11,489 bases of DNA. Source: an uncultured archaeon. Its GTDB lineage: Archaea; Asgardarchaeota; Lokiarchaeia; Sigyniarchaeales; SOKP01. The translations under genes and the position numbers were made by a program. The notes below the pieces were generated by a model. The model ran no database searches and was not told the DNA's origin. It saw only the letters and a list, made by a program, of their open reading frames with translations. Positions 180-11,489 of the stretch are shown here, piece after piece. The stretch spans positions 1-11,489 of the forward strand of contig CAYLZE010000139.1 of assembly GCA_964388035.1 (NCBI GenBank), in the 5' to 3' direction. Numbering within the stretch: the stretch's first letter is position 1; each line of letters starts with the position of its first letter.

Positions 180-1199
180 TTGAAACAAATCTTAAAAAAT
201 GAGAGTGACTTTTTGTATATCATGGAGAGCAAAGAAAAACTGCCATCAATGAAATTTTCGGGAGCTTCAATGCTTGGGAATATTAGTACAAAGCGAGATA
301 TTATAATCTCTGGCGGCTGTAAAGTCGATGGTGATATTGAATGCAATTCCTTTAAATGCTCTGGTTCCGTTGTTGGAGCCGGAAATATAACCGCTCATGG
401 TAATTTTAAAACTTCCGGGAGAATGAAGTTAGAAGGTAACGTTAGAAGTGAAGAAACTTTTCATTCCTCGGGGTCAGTTACCATCAACGGGTCAGTATAT
501 TGCGGGAAGATTTTTGATGCTTCGAGCTCCGTAAATATTAGTGGCTCTGTTCAATGTGGTGATAAATTTCTCTCGTCAGGTTCCGTAAAAATAGGGGATT
601 TTGTGGAGTGTGGAGGAGATTTTAAGAATTCAGGAGGAGCTAAAATTCAAGGTAAGCTTTTCGTACATGGCTCTCTACATTCTTCAGGTCGAATGAAGGT
701 ATTTAGCTTTATTAAATGCGAAAAAGATGCAAAATTTAGTGGAAGTACAAAAGTTCAAGAAGATATCACGGTAAATGGTGTCTTAAATGCATCGGGTCGT
801 ATAGAAGGTGAATTTGTCAAAGCCAAAAAAGGAATACAATTATCTGGAAAAACGGAAATTTTCAATGATTTAGAATCTGAAGAGTATATCAATGTCATGG
901 GGGGATTAAGAATTGAAGGAGATCTCATTGCGAAACGAGTCTTTTTTAAAGATAATAAGTTTTGGATTATTAATATTAATCCGGATAAATATTATCGTGA
1001 GATAAAAGGCAACATTGAAGCAAAAGAGAGTGTTGATATTAATCGTGCATTTGTAGAAGGAAATATAAAAGGGAGAAGCGTAAGTATAGGAAGGTACTGT
1101 AAAATTATAGGGAAGATCTTCTATGCTGATAAGATAATTGTAAACAAATCTGCCGAATTAGCAAATGATCCTATTAAAATTGATGCTAATCAGCTCTAA
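180..1199 (+). CDS. Polymer-forming cytoskeletal (bactofilin-like, YhbE/YhbF-type) right-handed beta-helix protein
   Basis: 339-aa ORF from TTG 180; in-frame ATG at 222 is an alternative start. It has about 11 tandem 17-18-aa repeats of the form (F/L)xxSGxxx(I/V)xGx(V/I)xxxxx, e.g. FKCSGSVVGAGNITAHGN, FKTSGRMKLEGNVRSEET, FHSSGSVTINGSVYCGKI, FLSSGSVKIGDFVECGGD. The C-terminal 'VEGNIKGRSVSIGRYCKIIGKIFY' segment is typical of extended bactofilins. Confidence 0.8.
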   Translation: MKQILKNESDFLYIMESKEKLPSMKFSGASMLGNISTKRDIIISGGCKVDGDIECNSFKCSGSVVGAGNITAHGNFKTSGRMKLEGNVRSEETFHSSGSVTINGSVYCGKIFDASSSVNISGSVQCGDKFLSSGSVKIGDFVECGGDFKNSGGAKIQGKLFVHGSLHSSGRMKVFSFIKCEKDAKFSGSTKVQEDITVNGVLNASGRIEGEFVKAKKGIQLSGKTEIFNDLESEEYINVMGGLRIEGDLIAKRVFFKDNKFWIININPDKYYREIKGNIEAKESVDINRAFVEGNIKGRSVSIGRYCKIIGKIFYADKIIVNKSAELANDPIKIDANQL

Positions 1200-1320: not shown

Positions 1321-3363
1321 TTAACTATTTAGAGCTTTTTCATGAGCTTTTGCATTTAATGGCAATAAGGGAGCACAAGCCATTAGCTTGGTCACATCCC
1401 CCTCAATAACATAGGTTCCTGCCATAGTAGCTTCAATAGGATTAGATTCTCCAGAATTCACTTTCTTAATGGTCTCAAAATTAGTTTTATGTAAGATTTT
1501 CGGGACTTCAGGTCCAGAATACTCTCCCATCCCCCATTTCATTGAATCTTTTTCGATTTTTTGCCAATAATCCATCTCTGGTCTATCGCTAATCTTGTAT
1601 TGAAATACCAGAGGAGCAACTGGTTCTAACATCGACTTCAAATCTGGCAGCTCATTATAAGCTTTCATGAAGCGTGTAAGATACGCTTCCCATTCTTCTT
1701 TAGTGTTCATTTTAGACATCACATCTTCTTGTTTTTTATTATTTTCTTTTATTTTTATAGGTTCAAGTTTCAAACCTTGGTTTTCAGCCTTTTTATTAAT
1801 TAAATTAGTTCCATATGGTAATGATTTTATAGATTTAATTTCCGCCTCGCTTATATAGAGCGAGGGATCAATACCTTTTTCAATGCAAAAATCAAGGAAA
1901 TCATGCTTAAAAGGCTGAGGAACTAATTGAAACGTTATTGAGATAATCAAATCCTTAGTAACGACTCTCATGTTATTTTTCTCTGCTGTTCTTTCAGCAG
2001 TAAATCCAATTCCTTTTTTTGCAGCGAGGTGCATGCTTTCGGGGACAATTATCATGGTTTCTTCAAGGAATTTTTCTGCATCAGAATCCCATTGAATTCC
2101 AAAATAGGAATCGCTTTCTGCTTTCTTAATGGGAGGTTCTAATTGTCTTTTTTCTTTGGGAAGATACATTTCTCCCCTATTTAAATAATCGTAGAGAAAA
2201 GCCATGTAATTTCGATAGGACTGATTACTTGCTCCCGAAGGAACGAAATACGCTTTATCAGCGAATTGATCGCAATAGTGACATGTTATCCCGCAGATTT
2301 CTGCACATTTCTGTCCTTTATAGGGAAGATTTTCGATAAAATCTTCTAGCTCCCCACTCTTGAGCTGGGCATTAAAATCAGGGACGCTTAACAAGATGCT
2401 TTGATTATCTGCATCCACACCCATTTTTTTCTCTCTAATAGAAAATTCCGAGAATTGATTTCCCGCCAGTTCCAAGGGATCTGAAACAAAAGAATACCCA
2501 TTAAAAATTTCACCTATATTACCCTCGTGAAATTTTCTACTATAGGCGGTTAATGCTCGATACAACCAATCAGTACCATATCGTCGTCCTGAGATTTTAA
2601 AATAATCAATCCCAATATCGATGTATTTATCTATATCTGAAGGTTGAATCCATTTGCACATGATTATTTGGGAGGGATCGAGTGCTTTTTGATTTTGACA
2701 AGCAATGGTTGCCCAATCATTGTAATATCCTTCTAATTTATCATGGGTTTGACTTGCATGCGAGCATTCCGTATAATGAAAGAATCGAAATGGACATTCA
2801 TTTAAGCAACAATCATTCGTTAATAATTCTATATCACATTTTATTTTCTCTCTAATCTCCTTGAGTAGGGGAAAATTTCGATTTAACATTATAGATAAAG
2901 TAATAACTCCCTCCCGTCCCACTATTTCCTCCCATTCTAAAGCTCTTGAGAGGGAATTCACTTCAGATATGACCGAAACTTTCAATTTTAATTTTGGATG
3001 GTAAATTTTTGCAAAGTTCGCTAAATATGGATCCGTTACTGTTAAATATTCAACATTTAAATCTTCTAACCAATCTAATTCTTTGAGTGCTAAAGCTTGT
3101 TGCTCTTGATTAAACATGTAAAAACCTAAACACATGCCATTCCATAACCACGTAAATTTTAACCCCATTTCATGGACTTTATTAATAAAATCTTCAATTT
3201 CGGATTTTTGCCTTTTTGCCATTAAGAAAAATGGTCTGCCTGACCCTGTAAAACTTAGATCAGAGGTTCCATACAAATCATGAACTTTTTCAATTAAACC
3301 TGGTTCTTCTCCGATTTTATTTAATAAATCCATTTTCCAGTTACATGCTAGCGATATTCTCAT
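1321..3363 (-). CDS. U32-family Fe-S protein (putative O2-independent hydroxylase) fused to a PCP_red/DUF2621-like module and a C-terminal SCP2 lipid-binding domain
   Basis: 680 aa. Residues 1 to ~400 carry U32 signatures: LWNGMCLG, VTDPYL, KVSVISEVNS, LNRNFPLL, NDCCLNECPF-x3-H-x4-SH, WIQPSDIDKY, GIDYFKISGR, and a C-terminal CAEICGITCHYC Cys cluster. Residues 423-503 are the shared module (IQWDSDAEKFLEE...VP...AERTAE...VPQPF...GID). Residues ~549-680 are SCP2-like (SGESNPIEATMAGTYVIEGDVTKLM). The start overlaps the upstream stop (ATGA). Confidence 0.85.
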   Translation of the reverse strand: MRISLACNWKMDLLNKIGEEPGLIEKVHDLYGTSDLSFTGSGRPFFLMAKRQKSEIEDFINKVHEMGLKFTWLWNGMCLGFYMFNQEQQALALKELDWLEDLNVEYLTVTDPYLANFAKIYHPKLKLKVSVISEVNSLSRALEWEEIVGREGVITLSIMLNRNFPLLKEIREKIKCDIELLTNDCCLNECPFRFFHYTECSHASQTHDKLEGYYNDWATIACQNQKALDPSQIIMCKWIQPSDIDKYIDIGIDYFKISGRRYGTDWLYRALTAYSRKFHEGNIGEIFNGYSFVSDPLELAGNQFSEFSIREKKMGVDADNQSILLSVPDFNAQLKSGELEDFIENLPYKGQKCAEICGITCHYCDQFADKAYFVPSGASNQSYRNYMAFLYDYLNRGEMYLPKEKRQLEPPIKKAESDSYFGIQWDSDAEKFLEETMIIVPESMHLAAKKGIGFTAERTAEKNNMRVVTKDLIISITFQLVPQPFKHDFLDFCIEKGIDPSLYISEAEIKSIKSLPYGTNLINKKAENQGLKLEPIKIKENNKKQEDVMSKMNTKEEWEAYLTRFMKAYNELPDLKSMLEPVAPLVFQYKISDRPEMDYWQKIEKDSMKWGMGEYSGPEVPKILHKTNFETIKKVNSGESNPIEATMAGTYVIEGDVTKLMACAPLLPLNAKAHEKALNS
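1855..2097 (-). repeat. Shared ~80-aa module, copy 1 (internal, between U32 and SCP2)
   Basis: IQWDSDAEKFLEETMIIVPESMHLAAKKGIGFTAERTAEKNNMRVVTKDLIISITFQLVPQPFKHDFLDFCIEKGIDPSLY; W3, P19, A34, P60, F63, G75, D77, Y81 in register with the other copies. Confidence 0.8.
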
Positions 3364-4517
3364 TTTTCCTTTTTTCCTACTCCTTTTTGAATTTCGCCTA
3401 TTTTTTTATTTATCAAAGTAAGCATTCTTTCTTTTTGATTTGGATCCTTAACTATTATCTTTTTATTGAAATCACTACAGTATTGACTTATTTGCTCCTC
3501 GAAGGGAAAAGGAGCATTATATGGAAAATCATGACAGAAATCTTTAACATTTAAAGAATTGAACTCGTAAATTGACGCATTCATCGTATTTGGATCCCAA
3601 TAATCTCCGTAAGGAGTAGGAATCCGAATATAATCGAATAAATTGAGATCTGTGGATTTCTCCATGTAAGATTTCAAGATATTCATGATTTTCGAAACTG
3701 ATAATTGATATGTGGAGAAAAAGAAATAATTAAAGCCTAGATTTTCATATTCAATAATATTCCAAGGAGAAACCCAACCACCTTTTAAAAAGCTAACAGG
3801 TTTCTCAATTCGCTGCTTCCAACAATTTAATAGGGAATAATCATAACCATCTTGAACATCTGATACATTCATTTGATCCCAAAAGATAGGTGAATTAATT
3901 GTTCTATGACTTTGTAAATTATGATGTTGATACCAATAGATACACCCCCAATTACACCCAATATTTAAGGGGATTATAAAATCCAACGATTTTCCGTTGT
4001 TTGACTGAGCTTTCATCTTCATGAAATTTTTGAGAGAGTTAAAAGATCTAATAATATCGGGGTGGAGAATAATAGAATGTGCACCAATGTTTGAAAAAAT
4101 TCTTGCTCGATTCATTGATGTAATATATTGGGAATATGATACGTAGATCTTCGCTCCTTGATACTGTTCCTTAAAAAACCCAACATTATTGGGAGATGAT
4201 AGTAAAATTTCGGAATATCCTATTGTTTTTAATGATTGTAAGAGTTGCATTGTAGCTTTATTATGTTCCGAATGAGCTTCAAGATTACCTTGGCAAGTAG
4301 AGTCCAAACCGGCTATAGGTATAATGCCCATTTCCTGAATAACTTTTGTATATTCTTCAAATTCTGAAAAAGAGTACTGCTTAAAAGGCAGGAAAATCGA
4401 ACTATTTCCAATCGGGGTATTAGGGACGTGAACTACCACGTGACTAACTGGTATCTTCTTTTCTTGAATTTTATAGATTAAATCTTTATTATAATTTCCT
4501 TCGAGTACAAATTTCAT
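3360..4517 (-). CDS. Divergent U32-family protein (probable partner subunit of the adjacent U32 enzyme)
   Basis: I place the start at ATG 4517 (MKFVLEG, 385 aa), with GAGGA at 4531-4535, rather than 4622, which would overlap the upstream gene. It is colinear with the 680-aa U32: LDSTCQGN, IILHPDIIRSF, NIGCNWGCIYWYQHHNLQSH (same N-x-x-C-x3-C-x5-H-x4-SH), LLNCW, WVSPWNIIEY. It lacks the KISGR motif and most of the C-terminal Cys cluster. Confidence 0.75.
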   Translation of the reverse strand: MKFVLEGNYNKDLIYKIQEKKIPVSHVVVHVPNTPIGNSSIFLPFKQYSFSEFEEYTKVIQEMGIIPIAGLDSTCQGNLEAHSEHNKATMQLLQSLKTIGYSEILLSSPNNVGFFKEQYQGAKIYVSYSQYITSMNRARIFSNIGAHSIILHPDIIRSFNSLKNFMKMKAQSNNGKSLDFIIPLNIGCNWGCIYWYQHHNLQSHRTINSPIFWDQMNVSDVQDGYDYSLLNCWKQRIEKPVSFLKGGWVSPWNIIEYENLGFNYFFFSTYQLSVSKIMNILKSYMEKSTDLNLFDYIRIPTPYGDYWDPNTMNASIYEFNSLNVKDFCHDFPYNAPFPFEEQISQYCSDFNKKIIVKDPNQKERMLTLINKKIGEIQKGVGKKEK

Positions 4518-4560
4518 ACTTATACTAAAATCCTCATTTTTAATTAAAAATAAAAAAAAA

Positions 4561-5733
4561 TTATTTATAGGAGTTAATTCCCGCTTGAGCCCCCATGAGA
4601 AGGAAATCCACCATTGTTCCATTGTAATCGTTCTCTATCTTATAGTAGATTCCTTTAGGAGCAAAGGTAACTCCATATATGAACTTATGAATTTCACTTT
4701 GAAAGGGGGAGGTATCCACGAATTTTTTAATAAGCGGATGAAGTTCTGTAGGCACCTCATCAGCATTTTGACATGTTATGCCAAAACAAATCCTTTCAAC
4801 CTTATTTGAATCCCAACTAAAGGTATAATTTAGATGAGCAGCTTGAGCACATTTTTCCATGATTTCATCAGAAAGTAAGGTAAATCCTAAATCACTAACT
4901 AATCCTTTACAAGCATCTAATGTGTTGTTTTCCGGATTGCTGAGCATGAAATAGATATTAGTGGTTTTATTGGAAAAATCGAATGCAAAAAGACTAAAAA
5001 TATCTAATCCATGTTTTTTAAAATAATTACTATAATTTTGAACACTTTTAGGATAATATTTCATCGAAAATATCGGATCGATGGTTCCTGGTACCACAAA
5101 AGGCCATATTTTGGATAACCCTATTCGAGTATCTAAATCAATTCCGTATCCCATGATTTGAAATGTATTTATCGCTTCTTTTATCGCATCATGAATTATA
5201 TGACCGTCATTTTGAATAAGCCCTTTCTCAATCGCTGTAGTATATGCATCAGGATCATGCATTTGCATTAATTCTACATATCGTATCGAAACATCTCTTT
5301 TTTCCACTGGTTTAGTAGTAGTACGGATAGATATGGAAGAACCCGTGAAAAATTGTTTATAGGCTTCCAAAACTTGCCATATTGCCTCTTTATCGTTGCT
5401 AACACCAACCATACTGCATATTTGTATGGTATCCTCCACCATTCGTTCGAGATTATTATTGCATTTGAAATCTCCCTTTACTTTTGCTAAATATCTATTA
5501 TAATCTACTCCTAGATCCTTTAAATCTTGAATCATAGTAGGCTGAAAAGCGGGGGGAGTAACTTCAAATAATGCTGCTACTAAATCCACTTCTGAAACTT
5601 CCGTTCCTTTCCTCTCCGCGCATTTCTTCTCTGCACCACCAGCCAATGCTGGTCTTATGATCGGTCGAACAGTTTCTGGTATTCTATTGACCGCTTTTTC
5701 ATAAAGATTTCTAACATCTTCATTCCATTTCAT
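4561..5733 (-). CDS. Soluble aromatic prenyltransferase, ABBA/PT-barrel family (NphB/CloQ/PTase_Orf2-like), with an N-terminal PCP_red/DUF2621-like module
   Basis: 390 aa. Residues ~92-390 match the NphB-type motif order recalled from memory: GIDLD..GLSKIWPF (cf. AIDGE..GFKKTYAFF), FKKHGLD (FARYGLD), DFSNKTTNIYF (DYKKRQVNLYF), LVSDLG (LVRELG), TFSWDSNKVERICFG (TLNWETGKIDRLCFA), IYGVTFAPKGIYYKIENDY (VYGLTLSPKEEYYKLGAYY). Residues 1-81 are the shared module. Confidence 0.88.
   Translation of the reverse strand: MKWNEDVRNLYEKAVNRIPETVRPIIRPALAGGAEKKCAERKGTEVSEVDLVAALFEVTPPAFQPTMIQDLKDLGVDYNRYLAKVKGDFKCNNNLERMVEDTIQICSMVGVSNDKEAIWQVLEAYKQFFTGSSISIRTTTKPVEKRDVSIRYVELMQMHDPDAYTTAIEKGLIQNDGHIIHDAIKEAINTFQIMGYGIDLDTRIGLSKIWPFVVPGTIDPIFSMKYYPKSVQNYSNYFKKHGLDIFSLFAFDFSNKTTNIYFMLSNPENNTLDACKGLVSDLGFTLLSDEIMEKCAQAAHLNYTFSWDSNKVERICFGITCQNADEVPTELHPLIKKFVDTSPFQSEIHKFIYGVTFAPKGIYYKIENDYNGTMVDFLLMGAQAGINSYK
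5491..5733 (-). repeat. Shared ~80-aa module, copy 2 (N-terminal on the prenyltransferase)
   Basis: MKWNEDVRNLYEKAVNRIPETVRPIIRPALAGGAEKKCAERKGTEVSEVDLVAALFEVTPPAFQPTMIQDLKDLGVDYNRY. Confidence 0.9.
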
Positions 5734-5800
5734 TTTTTAAACCTATTTAAATCCTATTACTTTTTGGTTATTTTATTCAATTTTTATGTATATTCTCATT

Positions 5801-7216
5801 TTATGTCTGATATTTTGCAAATTGAATATTACTCAATTCCGCAAAACCATCGGGATTGTTTATCCCTAATCCAGGTGCCATCCACCGGGTATTAATGGAA
5901 CAATATTCTCTAATTACCTTAAAAAGTTCAGGTTCTTTGATATTTGGGGATATATAGAATTTTGGTCTTAGTAGATTTTGGTTTTCTTGTATTATGCCCT
6001 CTTGTTCTGCTAATAACTGAAGTTGGGTGTGAGGATAAATTCGTAAGCCAATAAAAAGCAGTACATCCCCATCACCTTGCCATGCTCTTGCTTTATAACT
6101 CTCGATAGTTTGTAATGAATCGAGAGAAGTGCGGACAGTCTCTAAGGTTTCTTGCGGTCCACCCACTATCATGTGAATTAATTGTTCTATCTCGAGCTCA
6201 AAGCATTTCTCAGACGTAAGGATTGCATCTTCGCTTAATCGATCTTTTTGCATGTATTGAAGCATTTCATTTGACAATGATTCCATTCCCGTTGCCAAGT
6301 GTATTGCCCCACTTTGTTTCATTAACGGCATTATATCAAGAAAATTTTTATCCGGAACATAATTTGCTCCCCAATTTAAATCAAGATCTTTCTTTACTAT
6401 TTCTTGACATAAACTTTTAATATATTCACGATTTAAATTAAAGACACTATCAACAAAAAAAACATTTTTTATTCCATAATTATTTATCAATGAATCTATT
6501 TCTTCTACAACTTTTTTCTGAGATCTATATCTTACATTTGAGCCCTCGATATATCTGTAACTGCAATAAATGCAGTGTTTAGGACACCCTCGTTTTGTTT
6601 GGATATTGCCCCAAACTTCCCCATTTTTATCTAAAGGGTTAATCAAATATGCTTTATTATCAATTAGTTCTCGAGCGGGGTTTGGTAAATCATCCAAGTT
6701 ATTCACTCGCCAAGGAGGCTTCTCATGATAATTTCCCTTGGAATCTAAATAACAAATTCCCTTTTCTAATTTTCGAATATCTTCGCCATTTTCTATTTTT
6801 TTTAAGATTTCAGCAAACACATATTCCCCATCGCCGATAACACCGTAATTATGATTAAGATCTTTTAAAATTTCTTCGGAAAAAATTGAAAATCCCGCTC
6901 CTCCGAGAATAATGGGAATTTCTGGCTCAGCAATTTCCTTAATGTACTGAATTACATTTCGAGCTGGTAAATAAAAAAATAAATTTCCAGGATATGTTGT
7001 TGAATCTATATTACGTAAGGTAATTCCAATGACATGTGGGCTAAAATTTTCAATAGCTCTTGAAATATCATTTCTCGAATCATTACTATTTGTTAAATCC
7101 AGTATTTTAACTTGATGACCTTGACTAAGTAAATAAGAGGCAATATATGCTTCTCCTAATGGGGGTGCCATGACATGAATTAACTCTCTACTCACTGAAA
7201 TCATTAATGCTCGCAT
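5801..7216 (-). CDS. Cobalamin-binding radical SAM protein (class B; probable C-methyltransferase)
   Basis: Likely start is ATG 7216 (MRALMIS, 471 aa) with GAGGA 7 nt upstream. N-terminal B12-binding Rossmann motifs: PPLGEAYIASYL, GITLRNIDS, IILGGAGFS, GDGE. Radical SAM core: QTKRGCPKHCIYC (CxxxCxxC), FVDSVFN, GMES, GGPQET, GLRIYPHT, PKFYISP. Confidence 0.9.
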   Translation of the reverse strand: MRALMISVSRELIHVMAPPLGEAYIASYLLSQGHQVKILDLTNSNDSRNDISRAIENFSPHVIGITLRNIDSTTYPGNLFFYLPARNVIQYIKEIAEPEIPIILGGAGFSIFSEEILKDLNHNYGVIGDGEYVFAEILKKIENGEDIRKLEKGICYLDSKGNYHEKPPWRVNNLDDLPNPARELIDNKAYLINPLDKNGEVWGNIQTKRGCPKHCIYCSYRYIEGSNVRYRSQKKVVEEIDSLINNYGIKNVFFVDSVFNLNREYIKSLCQEIVKKDLDLNWGANYVPDKNFLDIMPLMKQSGAIHLATGMESLSNEMLQYMQKDRLSEDAILTSEKCFELEIEQLIHMIVGGPQETLETVRTSLDSLQTIESYKARAWQGDGDVLLFIGLRIYPHTQLQLLAEQEGIIQENQNLLRPKFYISPNIKEPELFKVIREYCSINTRWMAPGLGINNPDGFAELSNIQFAKYQT

Positions 7217-7258
7217 GTTCAAATCCTCGCTATATTTGTAATTTTATTTCAATTTTAA

Positions 7259-8668
7259 CTATTTTTTTTCATTTTCAACAATTTCAATTTTTTTATCTTC
7301 CAATGAATCTTCCATTGGATCATGATCATTTTCATGCCAGCAATAGGGGAACGAAGCGAAAAAGTCTCCCGTTTCACATTCCGTATGAACCCTACAACCT
7401 CCATGACAATATTTTAGATGGTGGCAGGATGCACATTTACCCGTTCTTTTTCCATCTCTGATATCTTTAAAAATTTGAGAATTTAATATATCTTGAAAAT
7501 CGTCCACTAACGCATTGCCTAGAGTCAGTTTTGTAGGATATCCGCAAGGATAAATTGTTCCATCAACACCTATCCCCATCATCGTTCTACAAGCCAAGCA
7601 TCCAACACCCCATTCAATTGCGGTTAATTCTTTATCATCTTTTGGCATTTCCATAAAAGGGGTCATTTCATAAATTTCATATGCAGGAAGAGTTCCTGCT
7701 TCTCCATTTCTAATGGTCTCTATTGCGTGTTTATATTTGAATTTATAGAGTTTTTTATATTCTTCTTGACTAAGCCCAATTTCATTCCAATAGGTAGCTG
7801 CGCGGTTTTGCTTCACAACCGCTCTAAAGTAGGGTTGAGCGCCCCATTCTTCCGATAATGTTTTTAACTCTTCCAATTCATTGATGTTTTGTTTCATAAC
7901 GGTAATTGAACTACACACGAATAGCCCATACTTTAAACAATTTTCTATAGCTCGCTTTGCGTATGTTAATGAATCGGAAAAACCTCGTATCTTATCATTT
8001 TTTTTGGGATCTGCACTATCAAAACTGATAAACACGTGACTCATGTTATACTCCTTGCACATCTTTGCGAACTTATCATCAAATTTAGTACCATTCGTAA
8101 TTATGGCATGGTAATATCCCTTTTCACTGCAAAATTTCATAATATCTCCTATATCTTCTCTTAACGTTGGTTCTCCCCCAAACCAGATAAAGCATGCATG
8201 ACGTCCTTGTTCTCTCAAGCCAGATTCGACATTTTCAATAATTTGACACCATTTTTGGGATGATAATTCTGGTCTTGGTATCATGTCATCAGCAGCACAA
8301 TGCAAACAATTCATGTTACACCGATCGGTTATATACATTGCAAAGTGTATGTTTCCGGGATGAAAAGCTTCTTCTAAGGTGTCCCAAGAACATTCGATTC
8401 GATCTCTAAGCTCTTTTAATTCCATGTATCTTGTCACGTCTATTCCTAGGGAAGTTAAATCATTGACCATCATCGCTTTAAACGCTTCCGGAATAATATC
8501 GAAAATTCCCGTGATCAAATCCCCGTCTTCTATGTACGATCCGTTTCGATTAAGACATCTCTTTTTTGCTGCTTCTACTATTTGGGGTTGTACTGCAGGA
8601 CGAAAACCATCAGGAATTTGGTTTACGATCCTTTCAAATAATTCTTTTGTATCTTTATTCCATTCCAT
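7259..8668 (-). CDS. Radical SAM/SPASM-domain protein (paralog 2) with an N-terminal PCP_red/DUF2621-like module
   Basis: 469 aa. CNMNCLHC (CxxxCxxC), GGEPTLR, TNG, ISFDS. SPASM Cys array GCLACR...IYPC...LGN...KCASC..LKYCHGGCR...PYCW. Residues 1-81 are the shared module. Confidence 0.9.
   Translation of the reverse strand: MEWNKDTKELFERIVNQIPDGFRPAVQPQIVEAAKKRCLNRNGSYIEDGDLITGIFDIIPEAFKAMMVNDLTSLGIDVTRYMELKELRDRIECSWDTLEEAFHPGNIHFAMYITDRCNMNCLHCAADDMIPRPELSSQKWCQIIENVESGLREQGRHACFIWFGGEPTLREDIGDIMKFCSEKGYYHAIITNGTKFDDKFAKMCKEYNMSHVFISFDSADPKKNDKIRGFSDSLTYAKRAIENCLKYGLFVCSSITVMKQNINELEELKTLSEEWGAQPYFRAVVKQNRAATYWNEIGLSQEEYKKLYKFKYKHAIETIRNGEAGTLPAYEIYEMTPFMEMPKDDKELTAIEWGVGCLACRTMMGIGVDGTIYPCGYPTKLTLGNALVDDFQDILNSQIFKDIRDGKRTGKCASCHHLKYCHGGCRVHTECETGDFFASFPYCWHENDHDPMEDSLEDKKIEIVENEKK
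8426..8668 (-). repeat. Shared ~80-aa module, copy 3 (N-terminal on radical SAM paralog 2)
   Basis: MEWNKDTKELFERIVNQIPDGFRPAVQPQIVEAAKKRCLNRNGSYIEDGDLITGIFDIIPEAFKAMMVNDLTSLGIDVTRY. Confidence 0.9.
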
Positions 8669-8681
8669 ATTTTTTCACTCA

Positions 8682-10046
8682 TTAGCAGTTTTCATGAGAA
8701 TGATCATCTTCATGCCAACAAAAGGGAAACGGCGCCAGAAAATCACCCGTTTGATTTTCCGCATGGACTCTGCACCCACCACCGCACATTTCTAAATGAT
8801 GGCATGTTGAACATTTTCCTTTTATTTTTCGATCTCGTATCGCTTTAAACATTTCCGATTCCATGATTTCATCAAAATCTTGCTTAAGCACGTTCCCTAA
8901 GGTTAGGACCGAGGGATAATCACAAGGGAAAAAATCTCCATTTATATCTATACCAGAGACAGATCGACATGCTTGGCATCCGACCCCCCATTCTAAAGCA
9001 GTTCGTTCTTCATCATTAAGTGGGCATTCCATGAACGGAACCATGTCATAAGTGTAGAATTTATTGAGAGATGAAGCCTCCCCTTTTCTAATTGCTTCTA
9101 CCACATTTTTATATTTAAATTCATAAAATGTCTTGTATTCCTCGTGATTAAGTCCTATTTCCTCCCAATTTTTTTCTGCATTTCTTTGCTTAATAACTGC
9201 TCTGAAATATGGTATTACACCCATTGATTCCAATTCATTTTTAATAATTTCTAATTCATCAAAGTTCTCTTGTTCAACCGTTGCTGTACATATGACAAAA
9301 TGCCCATACTTTAGGGCATAATTAATTGCTTGTTCAGCTTTTTCTTTGGCATGGGGTACACCCCTAATTTTTGCAGCTCTTTCTGGAATCGTACTATCGT
9401 AACTGATGAATACATGGCTCATTTTAACCTCAGCACATAGCTTTGCAAGTTCTTCATCAAAAAGCATGCCGTTTGTAGAAATTGCTTGATAATATCCTTT
9501 TTCGCCACAATATTTTATTAAATCTTTTAAGTCCTTGCGTAGGGTGGGCTCTCCACCAAACCAGATATAACACCCGCGTCTCCCGCGCTTTCTTAGCGTT
9601 CCTTCCACATTTTCAATAATTTGAGTCCACTGTTTAGTAGTTAATTCTGGGCGTTTTTCCATTACTTCTGCGGCACAATGAAGACATTTTTGATTACATC
9701 TATCAGTTAGATACATGGTAAAATGATATACTCCTGGTAAAAATGCTCCACCTATTTCATCCCATGTTCGAGCATAATCCTTTCTAATATTGGATAATTG
9801 AATATACCTATCAGTATCAATGTCTAATTTTTTGAGATCCGCTACTACTGTTGGTTGAAATGCTTCTGGTGTTATTTCAAAAAGAGCAGAGAGGATATCA
9901 TCCTTTTCTATAAAACCGGAGTTCCTGAGTCGTGCGGTTTTTTCAGCCGCTTCTCGTAACATGGGTTTTACCGCAGAACGAAAAGCCTCAGGAACTTGAT
10001 CTGTTATTTTTACATATAGATCTTCCATATCTTTTGGCCAATCCAT
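8682..10046 (-). CDS. Radical SAM/SPASM-domain protein (paralog 1) with an N-terminal PCP_red/DUF2621-like module
   Basis: 454 aa. CNQKCLHC, GGEPTLR, STNG, ISYDS. SPASM array GCQACR...FFPC...LGN...KCSTC..LEMCGGGCR...PFCW. Residues 1-81 are the shared module. AGGTGA RBS lies 6 nt upstream of the ATG. Confidence 0.9.
   Translation of the reverse strand: MDWPKDMEDLYVKITDQVPEAFRSAVKPMLREAAEKTARLRNSGFIEKDDILSALFEITPEAFQPTVVADLKKLDIDTDRYIQLSNIRKDYARTWDEIGGAFLPGVYHFTMYLTDRCNQKCLHCAAEVMEKRPELTTKQWTQIIENVEGTLRKRGRRGCYIWFGGEPTLRKDLKDLIKYCGEKGYYQAISTNGMLFDEELAKLCAEVKMSHVFISYDSTIPERAAKIRGVPHAKEKAEQAINYALKYGHFVICTATVEQENFDELEIIKNELESMGVIPYFRAVIKQRNAEKNWEEIGLNHEEYKTFYEFKYKNVVEAIRKGEASSLNKFYTYDMVPFMECPLNDEERTALEWGVGCQACRSVSGIDINGDFFPCDYPSVLTLGNVLKQDFDEIMESEMFKAIRDRKIKGKCSTCHHLEMCGGGCRVHAENQTGDFLAPFPFCWHEDDHSHENC
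9804..10046 (-). repeat. Shared ~80-aa module, copy 4 (N-terminal on radical SAM paralog 1)
   Basis: MDWPKDMEDLYVKITDQVPEAFRSAVKPMLREAAEKTARLRNSGFIEKDDILSALFEITPEAFQPTVVADLKKLDIDTDRY. Confidence 0.9.
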
Positions 10047-10052
10047 ACTTAT

Positions 10053-10058
10053 TCACCT
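10053..10058 (-). promoter_or_regulatory. Shine-Dalgarno-like motif AGGTGA for the 454-aa radical SAM gene
   Basis: The - strand reads ...aaagaAGGTGAataagtATG. GGTGA-type cores are common in archaea. Confidence 0.6.
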
Positions 10059-10102
10059 TCTTTTTAATTTATTTTTCTTTTTGGTTTTCATTTAGTAATT
10101 TT

Positions 10103-10945
10103 TTAATTTTTAACATGGATAAAAAATGGTAAAAATAGTTTATCAGAACAAAAAGTCATTTCATTCCTTTTTTCAGAACAAGTCTTAATAGAGTGAATAT
10201 GGTTATTGGTTATTTTGTAATAAAAGAAGAAGAAAATGCGAGTATTTCCCAAAAATTTAAAAATAGAATGTTTATGAGAAAAAGTATAATAATTACGGGA
10301 TTTTTTAGATGAATCCTTAGAAGTTTTAATGGTTTTAACCCCATAAAAATCCCCATTCCTTTTAAATCTAATAGGAAATTTAGAAATTTCTTCTAGATAT
10401 TGAATTCGAAGTATATCTCGTTCTTTGAAGTAATTTAAGGGTTGAGAAAAATACAAGCCATTCGGACCAATATATTTTAATTCATTCATTGACTCTTGCT
10501 CGAAATTTGACAAATCTAGATCAAAAAGCTCCGGATGATAACCTAAATCGCAATACATTTCGAATTCTCTATAGGATAGGATATATATTTTTACATATTG
10601 GTAAACCAAGGATTCAGCGTGTAATATAATGTCTACAATAATGGTGATATCAATTAAATGCCCAACCGTGAAATTCATAATTTGAAATTCCTTCGGTAAG
10701 AAAAATAGGATATTGATGGTGGGAAGAGATGGAAAGAAAATTGAACTTCCGGAAGATATATAAGCATTGAATGACGATGAAAGAATGGATAAATCTCTCA
10801 GAAACATGTAGAAAAAGACAGCTGGCAGACAAGAAAAAATGAAAATTAGGATGAGAATTATTCTGATTCTATTTGAATTCTTATATCTATTCATCGTTCT
10901 TAAGTATTGTGGTAAATTTATGTCTATACTTTTAAGATTATTCAT
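10103..10945 (-). CDS. Hypothetical membrane-anchored protein
   Basis: 280-aa ORF whose ATG overlaps the upstream stop (ATGAATAA) and which ends 56 bp before the next gene. It has a hydrophobic segment at about residues 28-49 (IRIILILIFIFSCLPAVFFYMF) and a weaker one at about residues 95-115. No family recognised; the C-terminal third looks compositionally odd. Confidence 0.55.
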   Translation of the reverse strand: MNNLKSIDINLPQYLRTMNRYKNSNRIRIILILIFIFSCLPAVFFYMFLRDLSILSSSFNAYISSGSSIFFPSLPTINILFFLPKEFQIMNFTVGHLIDITIIVDIILHAESLVYQYVKIYILSYREFEMYCDLGYHPELFDLDLSNFEQESMNELKYIGPNGLYFSQPLNYFKERDILRIQYLEEISKFPIRFKRNGDFYGVKTIKTSKDSSKKSRNYYTFSHKHSIFKFLGNTRIFFFFYYKITNNHIHSIKTCSEKRNEMTFCSDKLFLPFFIHVKN

Positions 10946-11489
10946 TTAAGAGTCCATATTCTTTAAGGCTTTGTTTCATATCTGCTTGAAAAGGTCCCGG
11001 CGTTCCTTCCAAAAAAGCCATCCTCATATCTTCATTATTTACCTCTTGTCCCCCTCTCTTTTTTGCCTTTTCTTCAGCGAGAGATGAGATTGCCATTCTT
11101 GCCATTGATTGAAATTGGGAAGGCGTTAACTTAATTAATTCATCAAAAATTTTTACCGTTTCTGGATTCCAAGCAAATTTCAGGTTTTTTTGGTCATCTT
11201 GATCTCCAGAATTAATACCGAATTCACGACTAGTAATGATATTTTGAAGATAATTCTGAAGAGATTCTACGTATGCTTTTGATTTTTCCTCATCTACGAC
11301 AACAGCTTTCTTTGCCCATTCTTTGCAATAATTACATTCACCGCACATGGCTATACAATTTTGTTTCTTGAAAAATTCTATAAACCCATCTAATTTAGTA
11401 TTATCAATATACATCTTTGAAACCATCTCTTTCCCAATCGTTGTTCTCAAGTTGAGATTAGGATCTTTCTCTTGAAGTCCCCCAAAAGA
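10938..11489 (-). CDS. 3' part of a U32-family Fe-S protein with a C-terminal PCP_red/DUF2621-like module (truncated by the window edge)
   Basis: The frame stays open from the annotated TTG 11450 to the edge (SFGGLQEKDPNLN..., no stop). YIDNTKLDGFIEFF..CIAMCGECNYC aligns with LKSGELEDFIENL..CAEICGITCHYC at the end of the U32 domain of the 680-aa protein. It is followed by the shared module (FAWNPET...TPSQF...AEEKA...TPGPF...G). Confidence 0.75.
   Translation of the reverse strand, partial: SFGGLQEKDPNLNLRTTIGKEMVSKMYIDNTKLDGFIEFFKKQNCIAMCGECNYCKEWAKKAVVVDEEKSKAYVESLQNYLQNIITSREFGINSGDQDDQKNLKFAWNPETVKIFDELIKLTPSQFQSMARMAISSLAEEKAKKRGGQEVNNEDMRMAFLEGTPGPFQADMKQSLKEYGLLNE
10941..11177 (-). repeat. 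Shared ~80-aa module, copy 5 (C-terminal on the partial U32 protein)
   Basis: FAWNPETVKIFDELIKLTPSQFQSMARMAISSLAEEKAKKRGGQEVNNEDMRMAFLEGTPGPFQADMKQSLKEYGLLNE. Confidence 0.85.

Follow-up and report, generated by a model that had tools for sequence, protein, structure and literature searches.

An adaptor-fused, probably active ABBA prenyltransferase in an O2-independent radical-enzyme cassette of an Asgard archaeon

To our knowledge, soluble ABBA prenyltransferases have been characterised only in the secondary metabolism of actinomycetes, cyanobacteria and fungi; the actinobacterial members act in aerobic secondary metabolism, and we know of none that bears an adaptor domain or an SCP2 fusion. 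We describe here a gene of an Asgard archaeon, a member of the archaeal lineage closest to eukaryotes, whose product (P0001, 390 residues) is a genuine and probably active ABBA prenyltransferase, as judged from its sequence and its predicted structure. The gene lies on contig CAYLZE010000139.1 (C139), which was analysed over its whole length of 11,489 bp and is referred to below as the window. The closest solved relatives of P0001 are the cyanobacterial hapalindole/ambiguine enzymes AmbP3/FamD1 and AmbP1 (PDB 5y4g/5y7c, 5ynt, 5yk9), at about 31% identity and with template-modelling (TM) scores of 0.89-0.92; it shares with them the diphosphate ligands, including R46 of AmbP1 (R137 here), and an aromatic residue of the W119 type. 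On the other hand, the AmbP enzymes have no N-terminal adaptor and possess a tyrosine cation shield, whereas P0001 has both an adaptor and a glycine (Gly318) in place of that tyrosine, and while the AmbP enzymes belong to an isonitrile/indole pathway, P0001 is surrounded by radical S-adenosylmethionine (SAM), U32 and SCP2 genes. P0001 represents a distinct adaptor-fused ABBA subfamily residing in an undescribed O2-independent cassette.

A second system worth comparing is the anaerobic synthesis of ubiquinone in Proteobacteria, where, as outlined in a preprint, the U32 proteins UbiU and UbiV together with the SCP2 protein UbiT perform hydroxylation without O2 (bioRxiv 10.1101/587956). When UbiA is counted in, this system and our cassette both combine a prenyltransferase, U32 proteins and an SCP2 protein, which in either case would act on a greasy aromatic compound in the absence of O2. 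The prenyltransferase of the UbiA pathway is nevertheless a membrane enzyme and P0001 a soluble ABBA barrel, and the archaeal cassette contains additional SPASM and B12 radical SAM enzymes, in a host in which no quinone-reactive respiratory subunits were found.

The gene and its two domains are as follows.
4561..5733, minus strand: whole gene of P0001, adaptor domain plus ABBA (PTase_Orf2) aromatic prenyltransferase; complete open reading frame (ORF) with an ATG start, 390 residues
4564..5457, minus strand: catalytic PT-barrel domain, residues 93-390, supported by DSSP of the model, Foldseek, residue mapping and invariance in homologues
5479..5733, minus strand: N-terminal helical adaptor ('dock') domain, residues 1-85, DUF2621-like, supported by a sub-cut-off match to Pfam PF11084, a genome profile and AlphaFold2

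A first-pass annotation, made from the sequence alone, had placed an ABBA prenyltransferase at 4561-5460. This interval describes the barrel well (about residues 92-390) but not the whole gene, as the first 91 residues, including the N-terminal domain, were left out of it. It also missed that the protein has an extra domain and that the operon is where its meaning is to be sought.

The host genome (G000; 5.47 Mb in 211 contigs, 96.7% complete) is a salt-marsh metagenome-assembled genome (MAG) assigned to Promethearchaeota (Lokiarchaeia-type). Promethearchaeota is a phylum in the kingdom Promethearchaeati, and this formal name is understood to cover the Asgard archaea. The proteins closest to P0001 (50-77% identity, nearly all of exactly 388-390 residues) come from Promethearchaeota/Lokiarchaeia MAGs, although some of them bear the submitter labels Thor-, Odin-, Hod- or Hermodarchaeota. 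The low-GC, anaerobic and archaeal setting proposed earlier is therefore correct, the contig being of Asgard, Lokiarchaeia-type origin and the genome having 33.4% GC. PTase_Orf2 occurs there as a single-copy gene. Its GC fraction is 0.352 against 0.334 for the genome, and its values for GC at third codon positions (23rd percentile of the genome) and for codon-usage distance (41st percentile) are ordinary, so the likeness in codon usage that had been seen with the neighbouring genes extends to the genome as a whole. Automatic annotation at NCBI already labels homologues as 'aromatic prenyltransferase'. We found no paper joining Asgard archaea or Lokiarchaeota to an aromatic/ABBA prenyltransferase, to U32 or to quinone biosynthesis.

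The family assignment rests on several comparisons. The Pfam model PTase_Orf2 (PF11468) matches residues 94-378 over profile positions 2-283 of 287, with an E value of 8e-50 and 170 bits against a curated cut-off of 22. In a phmmer search of the PDB, ABBA prenyltransferases alone were among the ranked matches: AmbP3/FamD1 (about 5e-45), AmbP1 (4e-42), EpzP (3e-31), NphB (4e-23) and CloQ (1e-9). The AlphaFold2 model (33 homologues) reached a predicted local distance difference test (pLDDT) of 94.1 and a predicted TM score of 0.90; it shows a five-helix N-terminal domain (residues 1-86) followed by ten strands alternating with helices, and DSSP assigns these ten beta-strands to the five alpha-beta-beta-alpha repeats of a PT-barrel. 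In Foldseek, the barrel was most similar to AmbP3 (5y7c; E 4e-29, TM 0.92, root-mean-square deviation 2.2 Å), followed by FamD1, AmbP1, EpzP (TM 0.85), NphB (0.82) and CloQ (0.78-0.81), whereas DMATS and cyanobactin enzymes scored far lower (PagF TM 0.42, KgpF 0.44). Both the Pfam and the Foldseek comparison had been suggested by the first-pass annotation, and its proposal of an ABBA prenyltransferase is borne out by profile, fold and ligand residues alike. NphB (Orf2), EpzP/PpzP, CloQ/NovQ and Fnq26, although more distant from P0001, as the above E values for EpzP, NphB and CloQ indicate, share its Pfam family and its fold and, like it, are soluble and have no (N/D)DxxD motif. P0001 has no such motif, nor any 19-residue hydrophobic stretch (maximal Kyte-Doolittle value 1.07).

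In AmbP1, the diphosphate is bound by R46, K117, N168, Y170, R223, Y227, Y276 and K278, and W119 is conserved (PMC6632223, section 8). The HMMER alignment places R137, K208, N259, Y261, R314, Y363 and K365 of P0001 at R46, K117, N168, Y170, R223, Y276 and K278, respectively, and W210 at W119, so that seven of the eight ligands are kept, with Y227, replaced by G318, as the sole exception. All the diphosphate-binding residues named in the first-pass annotation, which lie in the motifs GLSKIW (K208), TNIYF (N259, Y261), ERICF (R314) and YYKIE (Y363, K365), are thereby aligned with AmbP1 ligands. Taken together, the family, PDB and ligand matches are far beyond chance. Across 107 Asgard homologues, R137, K208, N259, Y261, R314 and K365 are invariant, and the position of Y363 is occupied by either Y or F. 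Since the diphosphate-binding set is complete apart from the Y227 position and the aromatic W210 is conserved, the usual ABBA chemistry is indicated. Gly318, which is invariant in the Asgard clade, sits at the position of the tyrosine cation shield (Y227 in AmbP1, Y225 in AmbP3), and S135, G195 and G197 are small residues at positions that touch the acceptor in AmbP3; these substitutions suggest a roomier pocket. The Mg-2 ligand of AmbP1, E209, aligns with H300 of P0001, and D147 (again invariant in the Asgard clade) falls one column off Asp62 of NphB, a Mg2+ ligand whose place is taken by a basic residue in CloQ, in the HMMER alignment.

Trees were made only from unnamed representatives of the family together with one NphB/EpzP-like anchor, P0219 (214 bits to EpzP, 194 to NphB). 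This provides part of the phylogeny that had been proposed earlier. With FastTree, all adaptor-bearing prenyltransferases fell into one 36-member clade (support 89). Under the LG+C20 mixture model the backbone collapses; the two Asgard types and an eight-member clade with N-terminal adaptors, which includes at least two proteins from Deltaproteobacteria MAGs, form an 18-member group (support 98), archaeal proteins with C-terminal adaptors and adaptor-less proteins of anaerobic bacteria form another (support 90), and P0219 lies in a separate clade (support 99). Because these groups are well supported and P0219 stands apart, the Asgard enzymes are a distinct subfamily that is not nested among the actinobacterial ones. 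No clade could be anchored as that of AmbP, since P0001 itself is at least as close to AmbP as P0159, P0164 and P0166 are, and P0197 has no PDB relative at 1e-30. It had been suggested that the gene was either an ameliorated horizontal acquisition or an unrecognised deep branch; the separation from the actinobacterial NphB/EpzP type and the patchy, mobile character of the cassette sharpen this pair of options, but do not choose between them.

In the sister clade with N-terminal adaptors and in one other adaptor clade, the positions of K208, N259, R314 and K365 vary. The proteins concerned are P0121, P0127, P0133, P0161, P0171, P0175 and P0183, as well as P0143, P0153, P0178 and P0194. To judge from the alignment, they may be pseudo-enzymes or have an altered chemistry, or else the variation may be an alignment error. 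Members of other clades are fused to further enzymes: in P0254 (627 residues) the ABBA barrel is joined to a polyprenyl synthase and in P0152 (611 residues) to a FAD_binding_4 oxidase domain.

We infer that residues 1-85 constitute an adaptor common to enzymes of the operon. The isolated adaptor matches Pfam DUF2621 (PF11084) with an E value of 1e-5, which is below the cut-off, and 12 of 15 aligned copies match it as well. A profile of the adaptor run over the 5.47-Mb genome found exactly five copies, all of them on the window contig: in the ABBA enzyme, in the two SPASM radical SAM enzymes (SPASM_A and SPASM_B), internally in a U32-SCP2 protein and at the C-terminus of another U32 protein. 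When modelled alone with AlphaFold2, the adaptor gave four helices (pLDDT 89). It is present in 20 of 150 family representatives, usually at the N-terminus, and at the C-terminus in Thermoplasmata-type proteins. In a tree of 43 adaptor copies, these grouped by host enzyme (ABBA 99, SPASM_B 99), which argues that the adaptor fusions are old and have not been homogenised within genomes.

As for the relatives of this domain, our literature search on DUF2621 found no paper mentioning it. The adaptor profile gave only non-significant histone-fold matches in the PDB and no BchB/ChlB chain, and Foldseek returned no match at E <= 0.001. VIA-align listed as its best matches the AAA+ lid of BchI (Z 8.8), the lids of MCM, dynein and Rpt (Z 7-8) and asr4154 (Z 6.2), all within the noise range of helical domains. 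The nearest Atlas clusters are stand-alone DUF2621/PCP_red proteins of 78-89 residues from anaerobic bacteria (score 0.82), which we regard as a lead only. With scores that are non-significant or in the noise range, we do not claim the adaptor as a homologue of PCP_red, of AAA lids or of the histone fold.

The gene of P0001 is the sixth in a co-directional minus-strand block that spans 1321-11489, in which the intergenic gaps are 13-67 nt. Its neighbours, in order of transcription, are the following.
10938..11489, minus strand: divergent U32 protein, 3' part of the gene; carries an adaptor at its C-terminus (adaptor profile match 10941-11177) as well as a Cys-rich segment
10103..10945, minus strand: small membrane protein 'orf280'; no Pfam or NCBIfam match, homologues at the same operon position elsewhere
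8682..10046, minus strand: adaptor-SPASM radical SAM enzyme B (SPASM_B), identified by Pfam; the most constant partner of the prenyltransferase
7259..8668, minus strand: adaptor-SPASM radical SAM enzyme A (SPASM_A); Pfam Radical_SAM, SPASM and DUF2621
5801..7222, minus strand: B12-binding radical SAM enzyme, upstream neighbour of the prenyltransferase gene; Pfam B12-binding and Radical_SAM
3360..4622, minus strand: U32-like paralogue without adaptor, downstream neighbour; identified by orthologues elsewhere and, in tblastn, by its resemblance to the U32 domain that the following gene encodes
1321..3363, minus strand: three-domain protein U32 - adaptor - SCP2-like, last gene of the operon; Pfam, with the adaptor match at 1846-2097

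The best NCBIfam match of the B12 radical SAM enzyme is TIGR04072, 'lipid biosynthesis B12/rSAM', with 288 bits, below the cut-off of 360; an orthologue adjoins the ABBA gene in most Asgard loci. SPASM_A obtained generic scores at the level of AhbD, NirJ and MftC, every one below the cut-off, and is kept beside the ABBA gene, Thermoplasmata and Aminicenantes included. SPASM_B likewise matched PDB entries of a generic kind alone (PqqE, SuiB-type, GDGT-MAS and anSME), which offer no clue to its substrate. In the alignment of its family, orf280 has a conserved N-terminal part, FLRD...SGSSIF.PFLP...GHLIDI, and a variable basic tail, and it always heads the SPASM genes. The longest ORF of the U32-like paralogue, which has no Pfam match of its own, overlaps the ABBA gene by 62 nt; as homologues align only from residue 35-36 onwards, its true start is probably Met36 at 4517. 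The last gene of the operon has a partial Peptidase_U32 match over residues 95-180 (36.5 bits, cut-off 22.4) and an SCP2 match of 16.8 bits, below the cut-off of 21.3; the homologous segment scores 23.2 bits in a Thermoplasmata fusion and 17-20 bits in ABBA fusions. No O-methyltransferase, UbiD or UbiX domain was among the Pfam and NCBIfam matches of the operon.

The operon seems to extend beyond the window. Full-length orthologues of the U32 protein that is cut by the window end have 468 residues in other loci, and another contig of the same genome, C138 (L075 8867-11524), closes with a second gene for a B12 radical SAM enzyme and, after it, a U32 N-terminus that is open at its 3' end and most likely continues into the 5'-open U32 ORF of the window. 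If joined in this way, the operon comprises nine or ten genes. Farther upstream on C138 there are genes for a peroxiredoxin, a corrinoid protein, a GH94-like protein, DhaK/DhaL and a URO-D-family protein.

The arrangement recurs in 10 or more Asgard loci. A tblastn comparison of the window proteins with ten Asgard loci gave the order membrane ORF, SPASM_B, SPASM_A, B12 radical SAM, ABBA, U32-like, U32-adaptor-SCP2 (or a free SCP2), U32-adaptor. Besides this, there is a paralogous type of cluster that has no B12 enzyme and whose ABBA protein is about 52% identical; in one such cluster, from a related genome (G186:C102:11992-13341, minus strand), the SPASM_A-type gene has one in-frame TAA, which may be a sequencing error or mark a pseudogene. 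Among 200 sampled genomes of the phylum, PTase_Orf2 was present in 11 of the 40 belonging to the window's GTDB family and in none of the 160 from 26 other families. A denser sample of that GTDB family yielded 17 positive genomes out of 61, in 7 of 13 genera, and the one other genome of the window's genus that was searched is without an ABBA gene. In total, the PTase_Orf2-like family amounts to 211 clusters at E <= 1e-3 among 1.84 billion representative proteins.

The ABBA gene and a SPASM_B orthologue occur together in 15 of the 19 genomes that have either of them; the remaining four genomes are incomplete (61-93%), and in the two that have an ABBA match alone it lies on a short contig. Outside the Asgard archaea the pairing was found in a Thermoplasmata chromosome, an uncultured archaeon, an uncultured bacterium and an Aminicenantes MAG. 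In these loci the SPASM_B orthologues, which adjoin the ABBA gene, are 61-69% identical, the prenyltransferases just 37-44%. Only fragments of a SPASM gene precede the ABBA gene in a Clostridia MAG, and a U32 gene precedes it in a Deferrimicrobium MAG. In view of the co-occurrence and of the pairing that is kept across domains, the cassette is the unit of inheritance. It is patchily shared among strict anaerobes of both domains and offers a clear case of a multi-gene module common to Asgard archaea, Thermoplasmata and several bacterial phyla.

The strongest functional link comes from gene fusions. Among metagenome homologues there are natural SCP2-adaptor-ABBA fusions of 536 residues, a common architecture, as P0057, P0059 and P0084 represent 19, 4 and 48 sequences, respectively, when clustered at 90% identity, and one SCP2-ABBA fusion without adaptor (P0125, 454 residues). 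Free SCP2 genes directly follow the ABBA gene in several loci, and a fusion of radical SAM/SPASM with SCP2 exists in Thermoplasmata. By the Rosetta-stone argument, the SCP2-ABBA fusions indicate that the prenyltransferase works with a lipid-binding domain, and a lipid pocket of the SCP2 type would imply that soluble enzymes pass on to one another a hydrophobic intermediate whose prenyl chain is probably of medium or long size. Prenyl donors are available, the genome encoding two polyprenyl synthases.

On this basis, we propose that the barrel would bind an isoprenyl diphosphate through R137, K208, N259, Y261, R314, Y363 and K365 and ionise it; the acceptor to be alkylated, rich in electrons and most likely aromatic, would sit below W210 inside the barrel. 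This would be the prenylation step of the O2-independent cassette of nine to ten genes (two SPASM and two B12 radical SAM enzymes, three divergent U32 proteins, the SCP2-like domain and the small membrane protein), which would build and tailor a hydrophobic prenylated aromatic compound. The U32 proteins might hydroxylate without O2, by analogy to UbiU/UbiV, and the B12 radical SAM enzymes might methylate; the SCP2-like domain would receive or hold the product or a lipid substrate, and the 85-residue adaptor could bring the five enzymes of the operon that carry it to a common partner or intermediate.

We consider this explanation, a competent soluble ABBA enzyme in an O2-independent cassette that makes a hydrophobic prenylated aromatic, to be reasonably probable. 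It has direct support in family membership, fold, the intact ligand set, operon conservation, co-inheritance of the cassette and the SCP2-ABBA fusions, whereas the aromatic nature of the acceptor, a medium or long chain in the prenyl donor, the transfer to SCP2 and what the adaptor does are inferred. Several observations weigh against it. The U32 and SCP2 assignments in the window are weak, as far as sequence scores go, and none of the three U32-like ORFs matched any NCBIfam model at E <= 0.01, hence none of the UbiU/UbiV type. No genes for an aromatic ring derived from chorismate, polyketide or tryptophan were recognised in the operon or its flanks. The role of the adaptor is a conjecture, because fold searches gave no significant match, and in some bacterial cassettes the adaptor is present on the SPASM enzyme alone, which fits substrate recognition as well as docking. 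Finally, the sequencing runs containing this DNA are salt-marsh and marsh DNA metagenomes only, with no RNA run among them. In the flanks of the bacterial and Omnitrophota loci, too, no ring-forming or decarboxylase genes were found.

A bolder version of the same explanation, which we put forward only tentatively, is that some Lokiarchaeia, and here and there other strict anaerobes, could possess a soluble metabolon held together by the adaptor around an SCP2-bound intermediate, and that it might produce in the absence of O2 aromatic lipids of a new class, bearing prenyl, hydroxyl and methyl groups and with a possible redox-active or membrane-protective function. In such a metabolon, the ABBA enzyme would perform the committed prenylation that UbiA performs in known quinone pathways. 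Were this true, the product would be a lipid type not yet seen in archaeal lipidomes.

The alternative that survives best, though we regard it as unlikely, is an O2-independent route to a quinone-like membrane electron carrier, an archaeal counterpart of the UbiT/UbiU/UbiV system in which ABBA would take the place of UbiA, while hydroxylation of the ring would be due to the U32 proteins and its C-methylation to the B12 radical SAM enzymes. The combination, in one operon, of a prenyltransferase with an SCP2-like domain and three proteins of the U32 family speaks for it, as do the existence of SCP2-ABBA fusions and the proteobacterial UbiT/UbiU/UbiV precedent as outlined above. However, the models NrfD, Cytochrome_B, Nitrate_red_gam (NarI/HdrE-type) and NADHdh (NuoH) had no match in this 96.7% complete genome, while controls detected these families, and NrfD and NuoH were found in none of the 17 ABBA-positive genomes of the window's GTDB family, their carriers in the 61-genome sample being all cassette-negative. 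Since the quinone-reactive subunits were not found, the product is probably not a classical respiratory quinone. The U32 proteins are, moreover, very divergent and have no NCBIfam match, and the cassette is patchy: 17 of the 61 genomes have it, but not the single same-genus genome that was searched. A 2026 survey of quinones made no mention of U32, SCP2, ABBA or Asgard.

Less probable still is the maturation of a ribosomally synthesised and post-translationally modified peptide (RiPP), in which the adaptor would recognise the leader, maturation of the peptide would fall to the SPASM and B12 radical SAM enzymes and ABBA would prenylate Tyr, Trp or another side chain. Both types of radical SAM enzyme, SPASM and B12, typically serve as RiPP maturases, and it is a pattern of RiPP systems that unrelated tailoring enzymes of one cluster have the same recognition domain; several RiPP models are among the weak NCBIfam matches, and genes for an ABC/ECF transporter and a trypsin-like peptidase, as well as two small ORFs without annotation, flank the ABBA-SPASM pair in one bacterial locus. 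The RiPP recognition element is, however, a PqqD-like winged helix, whereas our adaptor is all-helical and DUF2621-like, and no precursor peptide was found here: the gaps of the operon hold no precursor-sized ORF, although a precursor might be encoded elsewhere, and the only small conserved ORF is the membrane protein. This lack, together with the SCP2-like domains fused to ABBA, U32 and radical SAM enzymes, disfavours the peptide route, and the barrel is nearest to small-molecule enzymes rather than to PagF and KgpF, as the TM scores given above demonstrate.

We have little faith in the tailoring of a tetrapyrrole or another planar cofactor, in which the adaptor would be a PCP_red-like lid of the type at the BchB C-terminus, the SPASM enzymes would be similar to AhbD/NirJ and ABBA would add a prenyl tail. 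Among the NCBIfam models, AhbD, NirJ and AhbC do score best for both SPASM enzymes, an Atlas neighbour cluster carries DUF2621 and PCP_red, one adaptor copy matches PCP_red weakly (E 0.12), and VIA lists, besides the BchI lid, 2l09 (Nostoc asr4154, which we take to be a PCP_red member). Still, every one of these scores is below its curated cut-off or in the noise of helical domains, the adaptor profile does not find BchB/ChlB in the PDB, no tetrapyrrole biosynthesis gene is present in the operon, and known tetrapyrrole prenylation uses UbiA-family enzymes.

It is hardly credible that the gene came recently, by transfer, from bacterial secondary metabolism and has not been integrated into any role in the archaeon, or that it is an inactive remnant: the patchy distribution, the related cassettes in diverse anaerobic bacteria and the sister clades with degenerate catalytic residues would fit such an origin, but the composition and codon usage are genome-typical, the catalytic residues are invariant over the 107 Asgard homologues, which have 50-77% identity and a fixed length of about 390 residues, and the operon is kept in seven genera.

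Returning to the O2-independent cassette that we favour, its interest lies in an intact ABBA enzyme that is a fixed part of a strictly anaerobic, conserved operon of radical enzymes in Asgard archaea and is fused elsewhere to a lipid-carrier domain. If the product were identified, this would give Asgard biology an unknown lipid or cofactor of possible relevance for membrane and redox processes, an O2-independent route to prenylated aromatics, a new docking or substrate-recognition domain, and anaerobe-derived prenyltransferases with an oxygen-tolerant fold for biocatalysis.

Some features of individual loci may be added. The Thermoplasmata chromosome CP070629 (L051 4987-10160) encodes a SPASM_B without adaptor, an ABBA protein with a C-terminal adaptor, the radical SAM/SPASM-SCP2 fusion and a SPASM_A with adaptor. 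Two Asgard genomes have in common, near the cluster, genes for a LuxE-like acyl-protein synthetase, a sulfotransferase and one more B12 radical SAM enzyme (L019 1061-4440 and 16920-19668; L020 2721-4160 and 15566-19998), and family-2 glycosyltransferases and zinc-ribbon proteins were seen near it in L019 only. In the window itself, the 3' end of the operon is adjoined, on the opposite strand, by a gene (180-1199, plus strand) for a 339-residue bactofilin-domain protein with many GS-rich repeats.

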